Below, piece after piece: positions 6,695-53,219 of a stretch of 64,000 nt of DNA. The notes under the pieces are model-generated. The model was not told the origin of the DNA. It searched no databases and saw nothing but the letters and a program-made list of their open reading frames with translations. A program made the position numbers and the translations under genes. How positions within the stretch are numbered: position 1 is the first letter of the stretch; each line of letters opens with the position of its first letter. This stretch comes from Dimorphilus gyrociliatus (taxonomy: Eukaryota > Animalia > Annelida): assembly GCA_904063045.1 (NCBI GenBank), contig CAJFCJ010000046.1:79369-143368 (forward strand). Reading direction: 5' to 3'.

Positions 6695-7054
6695 AACCTG
6701 CTGTTGTTTGCACTGAAATAATTTTGTAAAAGTAAAGAAGTTGTAAAGAAGTTAAAGAAAGTAACCTTGCCTATTGCAAAGGAATCAACAAAAGATGAGT
6801 AAAAGTTACCCACAAATTTGTTGAAGAAAAATTGTTGCCAAGAACAGATATTTGGTTCCAAGGACCTGAAGGAAAGCAGTTCAAGTTGACTAAAAGAAAA
6901 TAGGATATATCCTACTAGAAAGAGTTATAAATACAAAAGAAGAAAGAGAGATAAAAATAAAAATCACCAAAGTGGAACAAGGGCACATGGAAGAACCTAT
7001 AAATATTAAAATTGGTTGACAGAAATTTCATCAACTTGCAAGAAACTTTTAACC

Positions 7055-7261
7055 TGGGCCAACAGAAAACATCCCCAAATGAGATTTTTGAAAGCAACAT
7101 TTCGGATTCAAAAATGGTTAGGAGGAGTAAAGTAGCTTTTGATTTATAGTTAGGGGGATTCCATCTAAGGGTTAGGAGCAATCAAAAAGGTTAAGGAGAG
7201 ACAAGGGCTAGGTTAGGGTTAGGGTTAAACTGTGCTTTTGGGGACGTTTTCTGTCATATCC
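7055..7261 (-). mobile_element. MULE-type MITE (207 bp) with TTAGGG-like interior
   Basis: 9-bp TSD CTTTTAACC at 7046-7054 and 7262-7270; imperfect ~25-bp TIRs (..ACAGAAAACATCCCCAAA / TTTTGGGGACGTTTTCTGTCATATCC). Confidence 0.9.
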
Positions 7262-7299
7262 CTTTTAACCAGCTCTCAAGAATGTTATGTAGAGCATTT

Positions 7300-7862
7300 G
7301 TGCAGAGGAATAGGATGATAACTTTATTAAGTCCTATCTTACCTCAGTTGTCTACAGTTTTATCTGAAGAAAAAGGAATACATAGCACTTGACTGGGAGA
7401 CCTCACAACAATTAATTATTGTATACAACACAAATCTATTAAGATCATATGTGACACAAACATTATTGTTAAATATCGTAAATGTTCAAAAACAGCTATT
7501 GGCCAAGTATATGGAGTTAATGCTCTCAGTGGAGCTCATAACCCATCAGATGCATGAAATCAGCCAAAAAGATATAATCTATGGCAAATGTAACACTGAA
7601 CAAAATCTTTTCAAGGTAAAAGATAATCCCTATGATAGTCAGAGTAACAACAAACAGCAAATATTTCTTCATTATTCTGCAAATGGATGTAAATTCAGGA
7701 AAGTGGCTGCTCAATCAATAAGATTAAAGATTTCAAATAAGCTGGAAGAACACCAATTAGATATTGAAAGACTCTCAGAACTTTTGAAATTAGGCATTAA
7801 AGAAGCTGTTGGAAAAAAGGGTGTACAGCTACAGCAAGTATTTGATTATGTGACAAGTAAGA
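7300..7862 (+). other. Unassigned coding-like segment (ORF 7451-7894)
   Basis: 147-codon open frame with a protein-like composition in AT-rich DNA; no family recognised. Confidence 0.25.
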
Positions 7863-9026
7863 TTGATCAATATTGGTTCAACTTTCTCCACTAATACACA
7901 TCAAACTGTGAATATTGCTCTAAATCAAGTTTGTTATTCGTCTAGCAAAGAGAGCAACCAAAAAGGAAAACAACTGGCATTGGACGGATCTTTTGATCAA
8001 TATTCATACTTTAGCTCTACTACTAATCCTTTGGAAAATGAATGGTGGATGGTTGTATTTTCAAACAGTTATTTTGTGAGGACAATCAGAATTTTAAATC
8101 CTAAACATCATTCAATGTCAAATGTTGCATTTTTGACTAGTATTGAAGATACTAACCCTAATAATATCAATTCTTTTACACTGTGCAATCAAGGTTCAGT
8201 TGGATCAATGCAATCTCTAACTGTTGATTGTTTGAATGGACCGCAATATTCCAAATTGACTGTTGTTAAACTTGAATCTGTCAATAAGAAATTAACTATA
8301 TCTGAAATTGAAATTTGGACAATGAGAGATATTGATAGGAATAAACTCAATGTCTTACCACTAATTGTCAATGAACAAACCGGGAATGATGGTCAAAGTT
8401 TCTCCTCTTGGGAGGATCCATTCTGTTCATGGACAGGTTCAATTGTTCCAAGTTGGTGGGTAATAGACTTGGAAATAGAGAGTGAAATATATGCTGTGTC
8501 ATTGGTAAATAGAAATTACGCTCTTGAACGTCTAAGTCAATCAAAAATAATAATATCAAATAATGTTTTAACGAATCCTCCTTGGCAACCCGAAATATTA
8601 TGTAACACAATAGATGACGCTACTTTATACATGACCAGACGTTGTCCTAAATATACAATTGGTAGATATCTTGCTCTGTTCAAGCCATCTTATGTTTCAT
8701 CTTCTGGTAATGGATTGACTATATGTGAAATTGAAATATTTGGGTCAACTTTGAATGATACAGCTCAATTTACTTGGATAATAAATTCTTCATCTTCTAC
8801 AATTCAAATAAATTCTAGAATGTTGTGTAACAATCAGAATGTCCAATCAATTGAAATTACTCAATATAAGAGTAAAATTGTATTGGTAGAAGTAAAAGGT
8901 ATTCTTCTTTCGAAATCTTGCAAAAATGATGCTGTAAAATTGATTGCATCTCGGGGAAACAATATGGAGGAATGCCAATTGGAAGGTACTTTAGATGGAT
9001 ACTACTCTCAGTATGATATTTTGTGA
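7863..9026 (+). CDS. Tandem F-type lectin (FTP/fucolectin, F5/8-fold) domain protein exon
   Basis: Two domains: NIALNQ..ALDG..WWMVVF..LTISEIEIW and GNDG..CSWT..WWVIDL..VSLVNR..ERL..GRYL..LTICEIEIFG. No ATG or signal exon was identified. Confidence 0.8.
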   Translation: MINIGSTFSTNTHQTVNIALNQVCYSSSKESNQKGKQLALDGSFDQYSYFSSTTNPLENEWWMVVFSNSYFVRTIRILNPKHHSMSNVAFLTSIEDTNPNNINSFTLCNQGSVGSMQSLTVDCLNGPQYSKLTVVKLESVNKKLTISEIEIWTMRDIDRNKLNVLPLIVNEQTGNDGQSFSSWEDPFCSWTGSIVPSWWVIDLEIESEIYAVSLVNRNYALERLSQSKIIISNNVLTNPPWQPEILCNTIDDATLYMTRRCPKYTIGRYLALFKPSYVSSSGNGLTICEIEIFGSTLNDTAQFTWIINSSSSTIQINSRMLCNNQNVQSIEITQYKSKIVLVEVKGILLSKSCKNDAVKLIASRGNNMEECQLEGTLDGYYSQYDIL

Positions 9027-41800: not shown

Positions 41801-41956
41801 GAGAGTGTGAAATGTAGGTAGAAAAGTAAATGTGGCATTCTGAGAGCAGATGAGTGTTGCAGCAGAGACCATGAAATACAGAATGAATACATTCATAATG
41901 ATAATTAATTCTACTAAGCAACCATATACACATTTGGGGAACTATAAAAATGACTT

Positions 41957-42050
41957 TGTAGCATTTTCTTGCATAGGTTTTAAGAAGTACAAGTATAAGT
42001 GGTATGAAATAATAGAGTTCAAGCATGTAAAATATATTCAAAGTTGTACA
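41957..42050 (-). repeat. Inverted, diverged fragment of the Gypsy LTR 5' end
   Basis: Reverse complement reads TGTACAACTTTGAATATATTTTACATGCTTGAACTCTATTATTT..CTTAAAACCTATGCAAGAAAATGCTA, matching 42177-42270. Confidence 0.85.
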
Positions 42051-42176
42051 ACATCTATTGTGGAAATATAATTATTCAATTTAGGGTTAGGGAAAATACA
42101 TAAACTCTTAAGGCCAACTTCAAAAAGACAGTTTAGACCTATAGAGGCTCAACCTATTATACTGAAAATATAATAT

Positions 42177-42775
42177 TGTACAACTTTGGTTATATTTTAC
42201 ATGCTTGAACTCTATTATTTTATGCAACATATACATGTACATCTTAAAACCTACACAAGAAAATGCTATAACATTGGCCAAACATAAGTCTGATTAGTCA
42301 GCTTGAAGGCTCATCTTTAATTACCAATAAAGGTTTGGCCAAGTTATAATTCAATTAACCTTCCTAAATGTTCAACCTTGTAACATCCTCTTACTAAACA
42401 TAAATATGAACTACACATTTCGGCAACTGTAAAGTGATGATTGGATGTCAGAGGCAAACCTCAAAGTATATAAATCCTCACTATTCTCATTTGGCATGCA
42501 GCTTCCATCTGGACCCAAGGACCTGGGAGAATCATCTGGAAACAACCTCCACTGGAACCATCCATCTACTCCTCAACATTGGAAGACAGTTTGGTAATTT
42601 GGCAACCTGCTTTTACAAACTATCTACTCTGCTATTGAACTCTCATATTGTTACTTGCTTAAGTATTATTATTGCGAATAAACTGTTTTAATTTAAACAT
42701 TTGTTTAAAGGTTCGAGTAGAACCAGTATTGTTATAACTTGCAAACCCATAGATTTTGCCAGCATGAGCAGTACA
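42177..42775 (+). repeat. 5' LTR (599 bp)
   Basis: TGTACA...AGTACA; TATA-like GTATATAAAT near 42467; AATAAA near 42676; direct repeat of 50688-51322. Confidence 0.95.
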
Positions 42776-42779
42776 AATT

Positions 42780-42796
42780 TGGTGCAGTCGACAGGA
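42780..42796 (+). promoter_or_regulatory. Primer-binding site, tRNA-Ser-like
   Basis: TGGTGCAGTCGACAGGA, 4 nt after the LTR; resembles the complement of tRNA-Ser 3' ends (TGGCGCAGTCGGTAGGA type). Confidence 0.8.
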
Positions 42797-42835
42797 TATT
42801 CTTTTGGTTTATTCAAGAGTTTTGAGAAAGTAAAT

Positions 42836-43900
42836 ATGGCAGAAGGAGGAAATGGAAATGCCACTGGGGCAGTTACAGACTCTAACCCTTCAACCCCAGC
42901 AACTCCAACAATTACAATTCAGCCAGCAGGAATGTCAGAAAGGCAACAAAGACTAATTGAAGACTATGATAGATTGGTGAGTGAAATGAAAAGAAATCAA
43001 ATCACAATTCCAACAGATCATGGAGATGGAACACATCACCCAGCACAGAACCCAAATGTTGATATCACAACAGTAATTCAAGCATTAAGGGCTGCTTGGG
43101 ACCGCCCTCAAAGAACTATTCTCAAGTTGTATGATGGAAGCAAGGAGTGTTCAAAATTCAAGGAAGACTTTAATCAGGCATGTTATGCTTATGGTTGGAT
43201 AGGTGAAGATGTTGTGAAAGCAAATCTTTTGGATTATTTAACTGGTCCTGCAAAGGATTTGGTGTTGGCTCTGGGTGGAGAGCCTACTGTGGAGGAAATA
43301 TGGAAAGCCCTCCATGACAAATTTGATCTGGATCCTTTGGAGTATCAAGAGAAATTGCTTAATTTAAAGCAAATGAATGGCGAAAGTGTGGTTCAGTTTG
43401 TTAATAGAGCAAAGAAATTGATAAAGAGGTTTTCTCCACCTAGACCAATGGAACCACAATTGCTTGCAACTATGAAAGAAATAAAACTGATGGAAGTTTT
43501 ACAAAGAGGATTACAACAGGATATTCTACATTTAGTGTACACCTTACATCCTAAATGTCAAACATTGGCAGAACTATATGAGGCTGCTAAGCAAGCAGAA
43601 ACTTCATTAAAACTAACTCAAANNNNNNNNNNNNNNNNNNNNNNNNNNNNNNNNNNNGTCCAAAAGTATGCACCAACTACAACAAATAGGTATTATAAGA
43701 AAAATCAACCAGCAAAGACGATACTGAAAGAGGAACCTAAGCTACAAAAATTAGAAACATTAGACAATGAAAGCATGTCAGAAAACGACGAAGTTCAAGA
43801 TATTCTCTGTTTTTCAGATAGTGACGAATCCACTTGTCAGCTGTTACAAAGCAAACAATCTGAGCGAAATGCTTCAACATTTATTGGACAATTTGAAACT
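42836..43900 (+). CDS. gag: Gag (retrotransposon capsid-type), in frame with the protease
   Basis: LKLYDGSKECSKFKEDF..W..LLDYLTGPAK..LKQMNGESVVQFVNR..L..GL; spans the N gap; no zinc knuckle visible. Confidence 0.9.
43623..43657. other. Assembly gap (35 N)
   Basis: Run of N. Confidence 1.
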
Positions 43901-46900
43901 AATACTGGTTTTAAGTTTGATGCCTTGATAGACTCTGGTAGTGGACAGATCTTTCATTTCAAAAAAGGTATTAAGACAAGTTCAAGGAAAAGCATCCTTC
44001 CCAGAACAAACTGTGAAAAATGCTAGAGATGCTTCAGGAAATAGCATCGAGATATGTGGAGAAATCATTCTCAGACTTTATTTTAATGAAAAGATTATTA
44101 AACAACGCTTTCTGATCAACAAATCATTACACAACAATGTATTATTGGGTGTGACTTTCTACAACAAAATGGAGCTACCCTTGACTTTGGCAAGAGACAG
44201 ATTATACTCCAGCCAGGTACAGAAAAGAATTACCCTGTTGGAACACAACACTTATCTTTCAAAGGTTTTTACCCAGTTCCTCTTATTATGAAAAAGAATG
44301 AGAGTCAAATACATACCCTTCAGACAACAATTGAACAAGAAAATCCCGAGATGAAGAACAAAGTTACCCAAATTCTGGCAAGATATAAAGAAACTATTGC
44401 AGAAGACAGATTTGATATTGGCAATCCAGAGGTACCACCTTGGAAATAACTCTTGAACCAGGTTCAACACCATATAGACAAAGGCCATATAGAATGCCTC
44501 CTCAAAAACAAGAAGAATGTAAGCAACAGATAGCTGAATTGGTAAAAAGCAAAGTTATTCAACCAAGCAAGAGCAATTGGGCTTCACCAATTGTTTTCGT
44601 AAGAAAGAAGGAAGGTAGTCTACGAATGTGTGTAGATTATAGAAAACTAAACAAAATGACAGTTAAAAACAAGTATCCACTGCCAAATCAAGATGATCTT
44701 TTTGACCATTTGGGAGGAGGAAATAAATTCTTTCTACAATGGATTTGACAAGTGCATACCACCACATTAACATCAAGAAAGAAGATAGGTCTAAAACAGC
44801 ATTTATTACACCTTTTGGCTTGTTTGAATTTATTAAGATGCCTTTTGGATTAACCAATGCCCCTCCTCATTTTAGTTATGTAATGAATTCATTTGTGCTA
44901 AAGGATGTAAAGCATTTGTGCCTAAACTACCTTGATGACATAATAATATTTACCAAGTCGCTGGACCAACATTGGGAAGCATTGGAGACCATTCTTCAAC
45001 AGATTCAAAAGTACAATTTTAAGATTAAACTAAGTAAATGTGTGTTTTGAAAGAACAAGTTCAATTCTTGGGACACATTGTATCAGAAAAGGGGATTGAA
45101 ACAGATAAGTCCAAGACAGATAAATTATATAATTTACAGCCACCAGTGTTTGCAAATTCACTACTAAGCTTTGTTGCATTTTGTGGCTATTACAGAAAAT
45201 TTATACAAGATTTTGCAAGAGTAGCTAAACCTCTGTATATGTTAATGAAACTACATGGGAAAAAGGATAAATTGCAATGGACTGAGGAAGCCAAGCAATC
45301 ATTTTTCAAGTTGAGAGATGCAGTAGTTAACCCTCCTGTATTACAACTACCTGATTTTGCTAAAGATTTTCACTTAACAACAGATGCATCGAATGTAGCT
45401 GTAGGAGGAGTTCTTGAACAAGTTTATGTAGATGAGAATGGAAGAAAACAATGAAACCCATTGCCTACGCTTCAAAACAATTCAACAATAATCAAATGAA
45501 ATATGCAGCCTATCAAAAGGAAGCATTTGGTGTTTACTGGGTTGTAAAGAAATTTTTACATTACCTTCAAGACAAGCCATTCTTTTTATATACTGACCAT
45601 CAGAGTCTAGTACAAACATTTAAGCAAAACAAATTGAATGTCAGCACAGCAAAATGGGTCATGGCTTTAATGGATTTAAAATTTACAATTAACTATGTGA
45701 CAGGACAAAAAATAGAGCAGATGCATTAACAAGATTAGAAGAATATACACCCCCAAGGAAAGTAACATTTGAAGAGCTAATTCATGGAAAGATCAAAAAG
45801 GAGAATTCTCCCTCTATTTCAGTTAAAATGGAACAGTATGAACATACACCAGAGTTAACTTTTGTAGCTACCAGTGATAACAGTGAAGAGAAAATTGATT
45901 TGTCTTCTGTTGACTTACAGTCAGAGCAAGAAAAAGATGTGAATTTAAAATCAATTAAAGAATATTTAACATTGGATGGTCAGCTACCTATTCCTTATTT
46001 TGGAACTTTTACACCTTTCATAATGGAGATGTTTGTTCACAAGGAAATGATCTGGATTATCCTTGAAGAAAGAAACATTCTGGTTTTACCTGACCATTTG
46101 ATGCTAACTCTGCTCCCTAAATTCCATAAAAATAAAATTCACAATCACCATGGACCCAGAATGACATTACAAATAATTACAAAGACCTTTTGGCACCCAA
46201 AATTAAAGATTATGATTGAGAATTCAATAAAGGATTGCACTTTGTGTGAACAAATGAATGGTAGGAGTAGAGTATACCCTTTGGTAGAAACCTTTCACCC
46301 TGCATCACCAATGGAGTTGGTAGCCATGGATATAATGGGACCCTTACCCATGGTTAAGTCATACAGATTCATACTTGTGATAGTGGATCATTTCAGTAGA
46401 TACACAGTTTTATATGCACTCAAACAGCAAACCAGTAAAGAAATTGCAAACCTTCTTTTCAACAGATTTTTTCCCATTTTTGGAATTCCAAAACAAATGT
46501 TGACAGATCAAGGAAGAAACTTTGTTGGTAAAGCTTTTAAAGAGTTTATGAAGGTATTAGGTATTGAGAAAATCCAAACAACAGCTTATAGAAGCCAGAG
46601 CAATGGACTAGTTGAACGAAGAAATAGAGAAGTGAGGAAGGAAATCAATAAATTAGTGGTGGAAGAAAATCAGCATAACTGGGTTGCAAACCTACCCTTG
46701 ATTCAAGCATTTTTGAATCAATCACCTGTAGGAAGTACAAGACTACCACCCCAGGAACTTCTTTTTGGCACCAGCACAAGAACACTGATTGATGTAACAA
46801 TGCATACTACCTCTCCTGAAACAAATGTACTATTTGTATTCAATCACCAGCAGCAATTAGTACAGTTAAGAGCTACAGCCTTCTGTAAATCCATCATGGC

Positions 46901-47315
46901 AAAAGAACAATATAGGGAAAGAAAGAATAGAAATCTCAATCTTCCAAAATATTTTGAGGTTGATGATGAAGTATTCTTAAGAAATGATGCTGCAAGAATT
47001 GCAATAACAAAAATCCCTTCTTTAAAATGGTTAGGCCCATACCGAATAACAAAAGTCAATCATCAAAAGTGGATATATGAAATACAAATGGATGATAATA
47101 CATGCAAGTTGGTACATGGTAGCAGATTAAGACTAGCCAATGAATCTAATAAGTTGGAAACAGGGAAAGAAGCAACAACAATCTTTCACCTTGTGGAGAA
47201 GGAAATAACACACCTCCAATATCTTTCTCAGGTAGAAGGAAGAAATGACTTCCAATTCCGTTTGAAGAATCAAAAGGCCAAGAAGTCATTGCCTTGTGTG
47301 ACACAGGAGCATTGA
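43900..47315 (+). CDS. pol: Pol: aspartic protease, RT, RNase H, integrase; interrupted by seven single-base indels
   Basis: ALIDSGS (43931); [15 protein letters not shown]; MPFGLTNAP; YLDD (44928-44939); TDASNVAVG; HH-CC zinc finger; [19 protein letters not shown]; C-terminal WLGPY..VHGSRL. Confidence 0.95.
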
Positions 47316-50300
47316 GATCCTTTATTACTGAAAAAGAAATCAAGTTAATGGATGTTACAATTATGGATAAAGAAACAATTGGCTTACCAATTATAACTTC
47401 AGCTGATGGGAAAGCTTTAAAGCAAAAAGGAAGCGTAAAGCTGAATATCCAATTTGCTGGAGAAAGTATGGAACAAGAATTTATAGTTATGGAAAATCTA
47501 GACATAGCAATAATACTTGGTTGTGATTTCCTACAAACTGTGGGAGCAAACCTCAATTTTGAAGCTAAACAGTGTTCTCTCAAATTTGATAGAAGGAAAG
47601 GGAACCTGGCTGAAAGAATAAGGCAACCTCAACTAAACAAAGTCACTATAGCCATGATGGGACAGCATGACTCTTCATCAGAAAGCTCAGATAGTGATGA
47701 CTCAGAGATGGAAGTTACTAATTCTGATACTGGTTATGACACAAGCAATACTTTCAAAACAGACAGTAATTACAGTCTCAATGAACCTTCAAGCTCATCT
47801 GAAAGTGATGACACAGAAACAAATAATGAACTGGATCAAAATACAGATTCAGAGGCAAACATTATCTCTGATAGAGAAGATGAAATACCTAGTTCAGACA
47901 ATGAGTCAATAATTATTGAAAGCGAAATTATTGATATAACCCATTCTGATAATGAGTCAATAATTATTGAAGGTGAAATTATTGACATAACCCATTCAGA
48001 TAATGAGTCCCTCATAGTGGTAGATTCATCCCAAGATGAGAAAGAAAATACAAGTGATACAGACAATGAGTCAGTCATATTTTTAGATGAGACTAAAATC
48101 ATCTCTGAACAATTAGATTCCCAACAAGAAGTGGAACCACAATATATAGAGTTAGAAGATGGAATAACTATCAGAGTGGAACAACAACACAAAATTTTCA
48201 ACCATTCAACTATAGCCAACACAGGAAGAGCTAACATGAAACAGATGTTGTGGCTTCCACTAGTGATGACTGTAATGGTGATCTGTGGCTGCATCCACTC
48301 AATAACAGTCCCAAAACCATCCTACCAAGGTGCACATGTTACAAGTGCAAACATTACCTTAACATTTAAACCACCATTATACTTTTGTTCTAACCAACTA
48401 CCAAGCCAGGCATTTGATCTAGCAGATGAGCCAACTTGTAATATAGAATCACAAGAAACCAAGACAATTACAGCTGATATCTATGAATTGAACTTGGAAG
48501 AAATTGAAACAAGAGCAGTAAAATGTCAAGTGTATCTAAGAACTAATTTTTACACTTACTATTTCTTTGGAGCAAAGAAGAGGAGAATTGTTAACTCAGT
48601 TATCAAAGTAACTCATGATCAATGCAGACAGATGGTAAAAGACAAACGATCTTTTCAAGGAAAACCTTTAATGGTGAAAAGAAACACTTGGATCCACCAA
48701 GATCAGTTTCCTGCTGCCTACACATGGCCAACAACTACCAAGGTGCTGGAATACACCACAATTATCCAGTTTGGCAAAGCATATTGGCAACCTCCTAATA
48801 TGAAAATTACAACTAATCTGGACTACCTGGAAGATTGTTTACCAGGGCAGTCCTATTGTGAGACAGAAGAGGCAATTATTGTCTTTAGAAACCTCAAGAA
48901 TAATTACACACTTGGGCAACAATCACCATGGATAAAAATTAGCAACAGAATTAGTTGTATCAAATTTGCTGGTCACTATTCTTGTCCAGGGTATTCTATT
49001 CTGGACATCCCTTATCAAGATAAGTTCATTGATGGAATTGGTGGTCCTGGAACAAAAGTACTAGTACCACTGGAGGAACAGAGTTTAATACAGGAAACAA
49101 GCAAGGAACACCTATACAATTTGCTACAATATCAGAAGATTGGCAAAAATGAAGAAAAACGACTATTAAACTATCCCAATAAAGTTAAAGAACAAATTAT
49201 ACTATACAAGCGAAACAACCCCTTACCAAGTCTTAACCAATGGTACAGAGAAACAAACACAAAGTATAAACTAATGAGAAATAAAGGCACACTCAAGGAA
49301 GTTGTGATATATCATCTACAACAACCCATTAGTCCATCTTACTGGGAGCTGGATAACTATTATATCCAAGAAATGCTGCAAGCAGTCAATTGGACAAGGG
49401 CAACAAGACAATCTGTTACGATTTCAAAATATGTATACAGTGAGAAAAGAATCAAAAAGAAGGTATTACCAACATTGGGCATATGGTATAAAGGACCACC
49501 AGCCAGAGAATTTAAGATTACCTATGAAGGAATTTATTTTACTCTACACATGAGAATGGCTAAAAAGCAGATGAAGAAGGAAGCAAAACTGAAACATAAG
49601 ATAAGTAAAAACCCATACCACAAATTCCCATTGGAAATGAGAGAAGCTGCCCAAACATCTACCTTACTACATGGTATTGATTCAAATTTTAAGAATTTAA
49701 AAAAGTTTACCCAACAGCTGTCAAGTCTTCTCTGCAATCAATTTGTTCAAAGAAGCAGAATGATGGCATTACTAGCAAATTTGGATCCTCAATTGACCAC
49801 AGTGTTAACAAATGAGTTGGGAATGCACAGTAGTCAGATGGGAGAATTAGCTATAATTAAACAATGTTCACCAATAGCCTCAACAGAAGTAGTTTGTGAC
49901 TTAAGCATGATAAAAAAGAATAACAAATGTTCTCAATTTTTACTTGTCACCATGAACAACCTGCTTTTCCAAGTAGAACCAGTTACTCATGTTTTACAGC
50001 AAGTCAATCCTGAAGAGATTACCTATAATGAGTGTAAGTTTAACAAGTTATTCTACAAAACAACTCACAACCCATTAAATCCTATAAGAAACCAACCAAT
50101 GAAAGACAAAACATATGTGTATTATTCAGAAAGAGGATGCAGATTTCACACTGTGTCTGCAAAATCCATGCAGTTACATATCCACAATCACCTTTCTGAA
50201 CCAAAAATTGAAATTGCCAGATTAGCTGATCTACTCCACCATGGGGTAAAGAAGGATATTGCATACCAGCACTCAAAAATTAAGCAAGTTATCAGTTCAC

Positions 50301-50656
50301 TGGAACAGAAGCAGGCAAGGTATGATAACATGGTCACTGTTGCAGAGAAAAATGGCATTGTACCCAATTTATCTGGAATTAAACAGTTTTTCCATAGTTG
50401 GTACTATAAACCTGGGAAAACACTTTATGTTATCATACGAAATATTTGTTTGAGTATTGTAGTGTCAATGGTATGTATCATCATTTTCAACTATATTATT
50501 GGAAGAAGAAAACAAAGAGAAGAAATTGCTACCCCAAGTGAGAGCACAGATAACTCTCCTGAAAACCCAAAACTAATGAAACAAAGTTGTAGCTTTAGTC
50601 AACATCAAACTAATGAAGAAGAACAACCACCTGTAATTCTCATTAAATCAAGATGA
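47249..50656 (+). CDS. env: Second aspartic protease + acidic repeat linker + signal sequence + class III fusion-type envelope glycoprotein with C-terminal TM
   Basis: ALCDTGA (47300)..ILGCDFL; hydrophobic MKQMLWLPLVMTVMVICGCIHS (48236); Cys-rich ectodomain; TM ICLSIVVSMVCIIIFNYII; stop just before the PPT. Confidence 0.88.
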   Translation, partial: LPIPFEESKGQEVIALCDTGALRSFITEKEIKLMDVTIMDKETIGLPIITSADGKALKQKGSVKLNIQFAGESMEQEFIVMENLDIAIILGCDFLQTVGANLNFEAKQCSLKFDRRKGNLAERIRQPQLNKVTIAMMGQHDSSSESSDSDDSEMEVTNSDTGYDTSNTFKTDSNYSLNEPSSSSESDDTETNNELDQNTDSEANIISDREDEIPSSDNESIIIESEIIDITHSDNESIIIEGEIIDITHSDNESLIVVDSSQDEKENTSDTDNESVIFLDETKIISEQLDSQQEVEPQYIELEDGITIRVEQQHKIFNHSTIANTGRANMKQMLWLPLVMTVMVICGCIHSITVPKPSYQGAHVTSANITLTFKPPLYFCSNQLPSQAFDLADEPTCNIESQETKTITADIYELNLEEIETRAVKCQVYLRTNFYTYYFFGAKKRRIVNSVIKVTHDQCRQMVKDKRSFQGKPLMVKRNTWIHQDQFPAAYTWPTTTKVLEYTTIIQFGKAYWQPPNMKITTNLDYLEDCLPGQSYCETEEAIIVFRNLKNNYTLGQQSPWIKISNRISCIKFAGHYSCPGYSILDIPYQDKFIDGIGGPGTKVLVPLEEQSLIQETSKEHLYNLLQYQKIGKNEEKRLLNYPNKVKEQIILYKRNNPLPSLNQWYRETNTKYKLMRNKGTLKEVVIYHLQQPISPSYWELDNYYIQEMLQAVNWTRATRQSVTISKYVYSEKRIKKKVLPTLGIWYKGPPAREFKITYEGIYFTLHMRMAKKQMKKEAKLKHKISKNPYHKFPLEMREAAQTSTLLHGIDSNFKNLKKFTQQLSSLLCNQFVQRSRMMALLANLDPQLTTVLTNELGMHSSQMGELAIIKQCSPIASTEVVCDLSMIKKNNKCSQFLLVTMNNLLFQVEPVTHVLQQVNPEEITYNECKFNKLFYKTTHNPLNPIRNQPMKDKTYVYYSERGCRFHTVSAKSMQLHIHNHLSEPKIEIARLADLLHHGVKKDIAYQHSKIKQVISSLEQKQARYDNMVTVAEKNGIVPNLSGIKQFFHSWYYKPGKTLYVIIRNICLSIVVSMVCIIIFNYIIGRRKQREEIATPSESTDNSPENPKLMKQSCSFSQHQTNEEEQPPVILIKSR
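47894..48020 (+). repeat. 51-bp (17-aa) coding tandem repeat, ~2.5 units
   Basis: SDNESIIIESEIIDITH / SDNESIIIEGEIIDITH / SDNESLIV at 47894, 47945 and 47996. Confidence 0.95.
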
Positions 50657-50672
50657 AGGGACTCATCTTCAC

Positions 50673-50686
50673 AAAGAAGGGGGAAG
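50673..50686 (+). promoter_or_regulatory. Polypurine tract
   Basis: AAAGAAGGGGGAAG immediately upstream of the 3' LTR. Confidence 0.9.
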
Positions 50687-50687
50687 T

Positions 50688-51322
50688 TGTACAACTTTGG
50701 TTATATTTTACATGCTTGAACTCTATTATTTTATGCAACATATACATGTACATCTTAAAACCTACGCAAGAAAATGCTATAACATTGGCCAAACATAAGT
50801 CTGATTAGTCAGCTTGAAGGCTCATCTTTAATTACCAATAAAGGTTTGGCCAAGTTATAATTTAATTAACTTGCCTAGGGTGTGGCCAAGTTATAATTCA
50901 ATTAACCTTCCTAAATGTTGAACCTTGTAACATCCTGTTACTAAAGATAAATATGAACTACACATTTTGGCAACTGTAAAGTGATGATTGGATGTCAGAG
51001 ACAAACCTCAAAGTATATAAATCCTCATTATTCTCATTTGGCATGCAGCTTCCATCTGGACCCAAGGACCTGGGAAAATCATCTGGAAACAACCTCCACT
51101 GGAACCATCCATCTACTCCTCAACATTGGAAGACAGTTTGGTAATTTGGCAACCTGCTATTACAAACTATCTACTCTGCTATTGAACTCTCATATTGTTA
51201 CTTGCTTAAGTATTATTATTGCGAATAAACCATTTTAATTTAAACATTTGTTTAAAGGTTCGAGTAGAACCAGTATTGTTATAACTTGCAAGCGCATAGA
51301 TTTTGCCAGCAAGAACAGTACA
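50688..51322 (+). repeat. 3' LTR (635 bp)
   Basis: Matches the 5' LTR with ~15 substitutions (hand count) plus a 36-bp tandem duplication (units at 50847 and 50883). Confidence 0.95.
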
Positions 51323-52996
51323 CTACTCCAGAGCTGCAGACAAACCCAGATGGGTACAAGTCACAAAGAGCCAGACTGCACCTGATACCAATGGGTTTAA
51401 AGGTTCTCTAAGCGACAAAGAAAAAGCCCTGACTAGAGCTATGAGTAAAACTTACAGTTCTATTCACCAGATTGAGAGACTTAAGGAATATAACCCTTGG
51501 ACCAAAAAGGCCATGGACATGATGGACTCCATTAGAATCACAGGAGGTCCCATCACTGGGGAAAGACTCAACCAACTACATGAAATAGCCAATACTTGTG
51601 CTGGAGAAACAAATAGAGTTGTTCTGGAGGAGCTCAATGAGAGGCTCTCTAAAATGAGGGACAAGATAAAAAATGATCAGCAAAATTACAATCAATCAGA
51701 GGTCAAGAAAGCTATTGAAGTAGCTAAAACCAGATCGATACAGAAATATGGCAAAAAGATTAACTGGGGCCAACTCAAAGAAAGTGTATACTTGGTCACC
51801 AAAAATCTAAAGGCTCCCTTAGATGACTCTTTCACCAGAGAGCTCCATGAAAATTTCAAAGAGCTCCCTACTATACAGAGATCCAAGAAACCAGCAGATA
51901 AAACCAGACACAAAGAACCTTACAAGAACTCTAAGGATGAAATCTCAGAACTAAGAAAGGAATTGGCAATCATGACTGTCTTATTTAAAGGAATTACAGA
52001 GAAAATGAGTGCTGATGAGGAGACTATGGACCAGGGAAACTCCTAACTCTTCAAGCATAACAGCATAACAATTATAATGTTTTTAAACATGTTTTTATCA
52101 ATAAAACAGAACCAAGTATGGTTTTTAACCTATGTAGGAACTCTAACATCAAGAGTTCTTGCCTGAACACTATGGTACAAGGTCTAGGCTTTGTCTGGAC
52201 TTGGGCCCCAAATAAATTTATAAACTTGCACTTCACAGGGATCTTGGATTATACATTAAAATGGCTAAAGATCATTGAGAAAAATGGTACACCAAGATTT
52301 CGAAATAATCCACTAAAGAAAAAACTTCTTGACATACAAGCACCATCTCTACCTGAACTAATGAGGGAATTAAATTACATGCCCTCTTGTCATATTCCAG
52401 AAATTAACCATATCACAGACAGGATATATGACATTATAAAGGGCTCTGAAAAAATTAATAGAGCCCAAAAGGGTCTTGAAAATCAAGGCCTAATGAAAAA
52501 CTTCCTCAACAATCACTCTAACATTATCATTAAACCAGCTGATAAAGGCAGAAGGATTGTCTTAATGGACAAAGAGGACTATGTCTTTGAAGCTATGACA
52601 CAGCTCTGTGACAGAACAACCTACAAACAAGTCAGCAATAAAATAAGCTCTACCCAATGGACCCGGTTAAATGAAATCCTTAATGAATTGGTTACAATGA
52701 AAATCATTACCAAATCTACAGCAACTCTGATGGCTCCACAAAATAGCCCAGGAGATAGAAAGTTTTACCTCCTACCTAAAATTCATAAACACAGCTCCCA
52801 ATGGAGAGTACCAAATAGGATCCCCAAGGGGAGACCAGTGGTGAGCTATGTAGGCTCTGATCTATATAAAATATCTAAATTTGTTGATCACTATCTGGTC
52901 AAAATGGCAAAAAGTACCACTAGCTATGCTAAAAACACCCAACATTGCATTGGCAAACTATCTAAGATACATTCACTAAAATTTAAGTTCCACTAA
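51323..52996 (+). mobile_element. Truncated Penelope-like retroelement: upstream ORF plus N-terminal part of the RT
   Basis: VFNL..GLGF; IIIKPADKG..IVLMDKEDY..QLCDRTTY; FYLLPKIHK..GRPVVS..SKFVDHYL. Ends before the catalytic motifs; no endonuclease seen. Confidence 0.85.
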
Positions 52997-53098: not shown

Positions 53099-53197
53099 TT
53101 ATTGATAAATGATTGGAAAGGACGAATACTGTTCTGAAGAAGCAGAAATTCCTACAATTACAACACAACAAAGTACAAATATGGTGCAGTCAACAGG
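53099..53197 (+). mobile_element. Sister-family Gypsy 5' LTR end plus PBS
   Basis: ..CAAAGTACA AATA TGGTGCAGTCAACAGG mirrors 42771-42795; the LTR part is nearly identical to 62028-62105 (inverted). Confidence 0.8.
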
Positions 53198-53219
53198 GTT
53201 ATATTTTTTTTCTATTTTA

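Follow-up and report, generated by a model that had tools for sequence, protein, structure and literature searches.

A probably captured protease-spacer module with an amplified SIM-like motif between integrase and envelope of an annelid errantivirus

Errantiviruses with a gB-type envelope are already known, one of them from Dimorphilus gyrociliatus, and 1512 such elements have been surveyed (PMC13524379, available in part). The element analysed here, contained in a window of 64,000 nucleotides (the whole stretch of DNA studied), resembles those described in the available part of that survey in its gag-pol-env order and its class III fusogen. The surveyed Annelida_Polychaeta_Dgyr_errantivirus_1 comes from the same annelid species as four of the five named proteins among 20 relatives of our element; the four are Dimorphilus gyrociliatus gene models, and one named relative matches pieces of the element at 83-89%. 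The LTRs are ~630 bases long in both elements and the primer-binding sites agree at 11 of 12 bases, whereas pol of the described element ends in a chromodomain and none was found by Pfam in ours (PMC13524379). The likeness rests on the published description, and two motifs of our element were not found in the supplement text as far as it is available. The main text, within the same limits, names a protease once and SUMO never, and does not describe a second protease ahead of env.

DDI1-type retropepsins have a fold in common with the second protease of our element (PR2), whose nearest relatives, unlike DDI1 and Wss1, are gag-adjacent retrotransposon proteases. Wss1 belongs to a protease class different from that of the retropepsins. 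It likewise places a protease beside modifier-binding motifs, and RNF4 and other multi-SIM SUMO-targeted ubiquitin ligases carry the same close, acid-flanked cores in a disordered segment (PMC12751080, available in part) that are found here in an acidic linker between PR2 and Env. Virus-coded SUMO-interacting motifs (SIMs) that use host SUMO have been described in ICP0, K-bZIP, BGLF4 and HIV-1 integrase (PMC12751080 and PMC10144533, both in part); these are experimentally supported, whereas the SIMs of our element are a sequence pattern accompanied by a small selection signal. A sequence-only reading of this DNA had likened the linker to the SIM cluster of RNF4. The RNF4 string was not found in the available text of PMC5445624, and, unlike RNF4, the linker frame has no RING domain and no sequence match, its array stems from recent local duplication and its SIMs are putative. 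Capture of the linker from a host RNF4 was rejected on the grounds that no match was present among 46 protein hits.

The host element is ~9.1 kb long and, judged by its LTRs, primer-binding site, polypurine tract and domain order, is a Ty3/gypsy errantivirus with a class III (gB/rhabdovirus-like) envelope. All of its parts lie on the plus strand. LTR comparison placed the 5' LTR (TG...CA) at 42177..42775 and the 3' LTR, with a 36-bp internal duplication, at 50688..51322, the two differing by 15 mismatches over 599 aligned bases; the primer-binding site (42780..42795) starts with TGG four bases past the 5' LTR, and the polypurine tract (50669..50687) lies ahead of the 3' LTR. A matching target duplication is absent from the element's own flanks. 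An inverted copy of the LTR start was observed at 41956-42371, just upstream of the 5' LTR, and a second LTR-end-like sequence with a PBS-like sequence at 53160-53200; two frames at 51300-52996 that abut the 3' LTR have no Pfam match above the cut-off and, by their motifs, presumably belong to a Penelope-type RT element.

Between the LTRs, the order is gag, then PR-RT-RNase H-IN, then Env, with pol broken in the window copy. The frame of gag and the start of the first protease, PR1 (42692..44026, with an N gap inside), matched Pfam PNMA below the cut-off and the gag of protein P0023 (27%, E 4e-11). PR1, RT and RNase H are split over several frames at 43870..45700, recognizable by pieces of Pfam RVT_1 and RT_RNaseH_2, and are followed by an open integrase frame (45693..47315) with rve and Integrase_H2C2 above the cut-off and by an open frame of 1135 aa (47249-50656) that comprises PR2, the linker and Env. 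Frame breaks are concentrated in PR1-RT-RNase H (43930-45700), with the integrase and the 3.4-kb PR2-Env frame (47290-50656) open, a clustering that may reflect either how well the assembly resolves the surroundings of the N gap or selection acting on Env.

The Env part (48311..50656), with a C-terminal membrane anchor at aa 1066-1084 predicted from hydropathy, is class III fusogen-like and lies downstream of pol. Its best matches in ESM Atlas were to Monjiviricetes_fusion (score 0.95; the family is found on 57% of that cluster), and its relatives P0007 and P0026 match Rhabdo_glycop_FD; Pfam gave no direct match on the element's own Env (in P0001), and the single-sequence fold of Env (mean pLDDT 35) is uninformative. 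Directly ahead of Env, a Met (aa 331) with a hydrophobic leader (48239..48310; hydropathy peak at aa 336-354) is likely the Env signal peptide. All six Env relatives that have their N-terminus begin at a Met and leader of their own, without a protease or an acidic linker, their starts being gene calls made mostly on short contigs. Elsewhere, at 6808-7873, the window contains pieces of another env related to this one, 30-47% identical to P0001 and, in part of P0013, 86%; they directly precede a frame resembling a host lectin-type domain.

PR2 (47276..47584) has intact DTG and ILGxDF motifs and matches Pfam RVP_2 and RVP above the cut-off. Its model (pLDDT ~90) was matched by Foldseek to DDI1 and retroviral proteases, so that motifs and modelled fold together identify it as a retropepsin (clan AA) with predicted activity. 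PR2 is 67% identical to P0009 and, at 45%, also resembles the protease of the gag-PR protein P0023, which has a real gag, as opposed to only ~24% to the element's own PR1; an intra-element duplication of PR1 as the source of PR2 was rejected. The similarity to P0023 extends upstream of the protease: the end of the integrase frame is 33% identical to the 43 aa ahead of the protease in P0023, the match beginning 43 residues inside the integrase frame. This lead-in of PR2 (47157..47285) shares the reading frame of integrase. In this area the frame of the window copy is broken, and at the integrase/PR2 junction the deepest contigs of three of the four sequencing runs have a version that differs from the window copy.

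Several observations on possible transcripts come from the same area. A pyrimidine tract followed by AG on the plus strand (47222-47235), just ahead of PR2, might serve as the splice acceptor of a subgenomic message, and three weaker acceptor-like sites lie inside the linker. The deepest contig of run X5 skips 60 bases (47328-47387) with CT..AC ends, where the minus strand reads GTAAGC...TTTTTCAG; this has the look of a textbook short minus-strand intron and hints that a spliced antisense transcript covers pol and PR2. The skip is absent in the other three runs.

The other end of the linker also resembles a gypsy element of a different family. Residues 266-315 are 59% identical over 54 aa (E 2e-12) to the spacer directly ahead of RT in P0037, a spliced gene model of which the view starts at this spacer, and the shared segment (48044..48193) ends in a predicted hairpin (YIEL...ITIR). 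The RT and integrase of P0037 are only 60% and 42% identical to those of our element. Contigs of X1 and X5 (two of the four runs) match 48128-48189, differ in their flanks and continue into letters fitting the downstream spacer of P0037, and the P0037 junction is therefore not an artefact of the gene model. The window opens (1-605) with the RNase H region of a different gypsy family, which over 33 aa is 82% identical to P0037.

Because PR2 and the linker's end resemble other gypsy families and not the element's own protease, the module looks captured: recombination likely brought PR2 and the spacer from another gypsy family into the Pol frame, where they lie between integrase and Env. The direction, from the other family into our element, is the one we infer, with P0023 and P0037 treated separately and not as one family. 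A word-index protein search at near lengths returned nothing for the whole 1135-aa frame or the N-terminus of Env and, among shorter proteins, a single match, P0009; relatives of the frame were found neither in metagenome contigs nor among PDB sequences, and ESM Atlas gave only retropepsin leads for aa 1-360, with scores <0.8.

The linker (47660..48160; aa 138-304) is 167 aa long, consists of 19% S, 16% E, 15% D and 12% I, and has a net charge of -47. It is predicted to be disordered from the structure model, in which aa 155-294 have a pLDDT <50 and no structure; such values are expected anyway, since the underlying alignment had no true homologue there. Among the 46 protein matches (1.84 billion representatives searched), none had its best stretch over aa 216-265. 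The sequence-only reading had described an array of SIMs amplified by tandem duplication, and its inventory holds up: the named motifs are all present within 47906-48160 (SIIIE from 47906 and 47957, EIIDITHSD from 47924 and 47975, LIVVDS from 48011, VIFLDE from 48074 and YIELED from 48143), the acidic flanks come with CK2-type sites (21 [ST]xx[DE] sites were counted in the linker), and the 51-bp tandem repeat is real (47893..48009, period 51, 2.3 copies, 90% matches), containing both SIIIE and both IIDI cores. LIVVDS (48011..48028) is the best SIM-type core, and VIFLDE (48074..48091) belongs to the fourth of four units in which DNES is followed by a hydrophobic core (aa 217, 234, 251 and 272), an older repeat beneath the recent one. 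The cores are accordingly not independent of each other, as four of them descend from a single DNES-hydrophobic unit. The gag/PR1 junction (43760-43850) likewise contains a DNES, as well as an acidic patch accompanied by a hydrophobic run, but no strict core.

The assignment of these cores to the SIM consensus stands for part of them. Four of the seven are strict V/I/L cores (IIDI twice, LIVV and VIFL), each with at least 3 D/E among its 10 flanking residues, whereas both SIIIE cores and YIEL, which a low-confidence model places in one strand of the hairpin, satisfy only the looser rule that three of four residues be hydrophobic (PMC12751080, available in part). By ELM-type patterns, applied as regular expressions, 3 of the 7 cores fit, 1 fits type a and 0 fit the strict type b 'DLT'. 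The enrichment of SIM motifs over shuffled sequences (20,000 shuffles) is modest: 4 strict cores were seen against 1.44 in shuffles (P 0.025) and 3 ELM-type cores against 1.27 (P 0.11). Discounting one repeat unit changes the P-values to 0.04 (strict) and 0.20 (ELM-type); they are, for the C-terminal half of the linker alone 0.12 and 0.23. The density of strict cores is 2.4 per 100 aa in the linker versus 2.0 in the other frames of the window; acid-flanked cores are rare in the rest of the window (10 in 7180 aa). The linker is also no ordinary spacer, because among 10 other retropepsin matches with a readable downstream segment none of these segments was acidic, one had a single acid-flanked core and none had two.

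Whether the cores are conserved, the point on which the earlier reading would stand or fall, received a divided answer from a comparison that covered very few relatives: one core is kept in P0037 and the twin repeat units show a synonymous bias, but the array is absent or replaced in relatives. The P0037 unit has VILV as the counterpart of LIVV, with 10 of 17 residues identical and the strict core kept, and shows this one SIM-type core as compared with four related DNES-hydrophobic units in the family of our element. Relative to P0037, hydrophobic positions are identical in 12 of 14 cases and other positions in 20 of 36 (P 0.044), with 6 of the 12 falling in the hairpin. Between the twin 51-bp units, four of the five differences are synonymous and one is non-synonymous (P 0.005-0.015 in a single post-hoc test), and both constraint tests involve few changes and were chosen after the data had been seen. 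All four units retain DNES, and their core positions swap among I, L, V and F, except for one position that changes from E to a hydrophobic residue.

In contrast to the core, the number of units varies. In one X5 contig, whose flanks show 87% and 90% identity, 119 bases replace 221 over 47921-48141, a span that covers IIDI, IIDI, LIVV and VIFL; the 102 fewer bases correspond to two units, and the 119 replacing bases, known by length alone, may contain cores. In the deepest X5 contig, the first SIIIE core includes a polar residue. Another joint in X5 (47917 to 48101), with 20 letters on one side, was set aside as too weak. Among the linker sites listed in X1, X3 and X5 (at least 11), 4 differences are synonymous and 7 are not, but the decay that the window copy has undergone after its insertion makes these sites uninformative about selection. 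Over 46900-48700, X6 departs from the window almost exclusively by G>A (32) and C>T (10), a pattern like that of a base-converted library, and X6 was left out of the site analysis. Taken at the sequence level, the comparison suggests that one motif is old and constrained, whereas its copy number is recent and variable. A poly-SUMO reader would keep several close SIMs as an array, and an array was found in this family only. The SIM resemblance is partly supported: it exceeds chance for at least one core, LIVV, a candidate SUMO-binding site.

As to function, the chances appear even that the linker, captured with PR2 from another gypsy family, works as a constrained, disordered processing spacer. 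In other copies of the element, the spacer would be part of a continuous Pol-PR2-spacer-Env product, and proteases would cut in or beside it, freeing the cytosolic Pol enzymes from the membrane-bound, leader-anchored Env. Retropepsins cleave polyproteins, and it is from what is established for these polyproteins that cleavage in the spacer is proposed. Constraint on the motif would then reflect protease recognition or an acidic, aggregation-free composition and not SUMO binding, although we count against the processing spacer that the same constraint would suit a SIM as well. That the linker is a neutral low-complexity remnant of recombination, with repeats made by slippage and a chance likeness to SIMs, is quite unlikely. 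The lack of significance for ELM-type cores, the strict-core density in the other frames of the window and the replacement of the segment in the close X5 relative would all fit such a remnant, but the synonymous bias between the twin units, the hydrophobic positions kept relative to P0037 and the rarity of acid-flanked cores elsewhere in the window argue against it, as does a 1135-codon frame that is open although pol has many breaks.

True SIMs, amplified from one to four, could act as a tether on a C-terminal extension of integrase (or of PR2), and would, by analogy with a chromodomain, bring the pre-integration complex to chromatin or nuclear bodies rich in SUMO; chromodomains serve as such tethers in other gypsy elements. 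This main rival to the processing spacer is possible but doubtful. The synonymous bias together with the hydrophobic exchange among units, the ancestral core kept in P0037, the predicted disorder of the linker on the cytosolic side of the leader and the start of the module in the integrase frame are consistent with a tether, and so are the chromodomain that ends pol in the related annelid errantivirus (PMC13524379), the SIMs reported in HIV-1 integrase (PMC10144533) and the readiness with which SIMs arise in disordered regions (PMC12751080), as far as these sources are available. However, the number of array units is not conserved, the enrichment is weak once the repeat is discounted, PR2 sits between integrase and the array and is expected to be cut out, and aa 1-335 contain only one short basic patch. 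SUMO participates in piRNA silencing, which favours the proposal of the sequence-only reading that a released PR2-polySIM fragment could be a SUMO-chain-targeted protease or an anti-silencing factor. The intact catalytic motifs and retropepsin fold of PR2, the precedent of a SIM-bearing protease in yeast Wss1 and the existence of viral SIM proteins such as ICP0 (PMC12751080, available in part) would agree with it, but PR2 resembles the ordinary gag-adjacent protease of another family and the same spacer end precedes RT in the other family's context; we regard this proposal as highly improbable. A captured protease-spacer module in which one SIM was amplified to a poly-SUMO-reading array where the integrase polyprotein ends, such that the host's SUMO mark would steer integration or aim PR2 at SUMOylated silencing proteins, is unlikely.

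Neither the literature searched, with subscription papers mostly outside it, nor the main text of PMC13524379, as far as available, revealed another case in which a second protease and spacer from a different gypsy family lie between integrase and Env, and the same literature yielded no SIM array encoded by a transposon. Capture of the PR2-spacer module would point to swapping of modules between co-resident families, and the arrangement suggests a way in which Env may be made from the Pol frame. Should SUMO chains be bound by the amplified motif, the element would encode a retrotransposon's own reader of the modification that animals use for transposon silencing.
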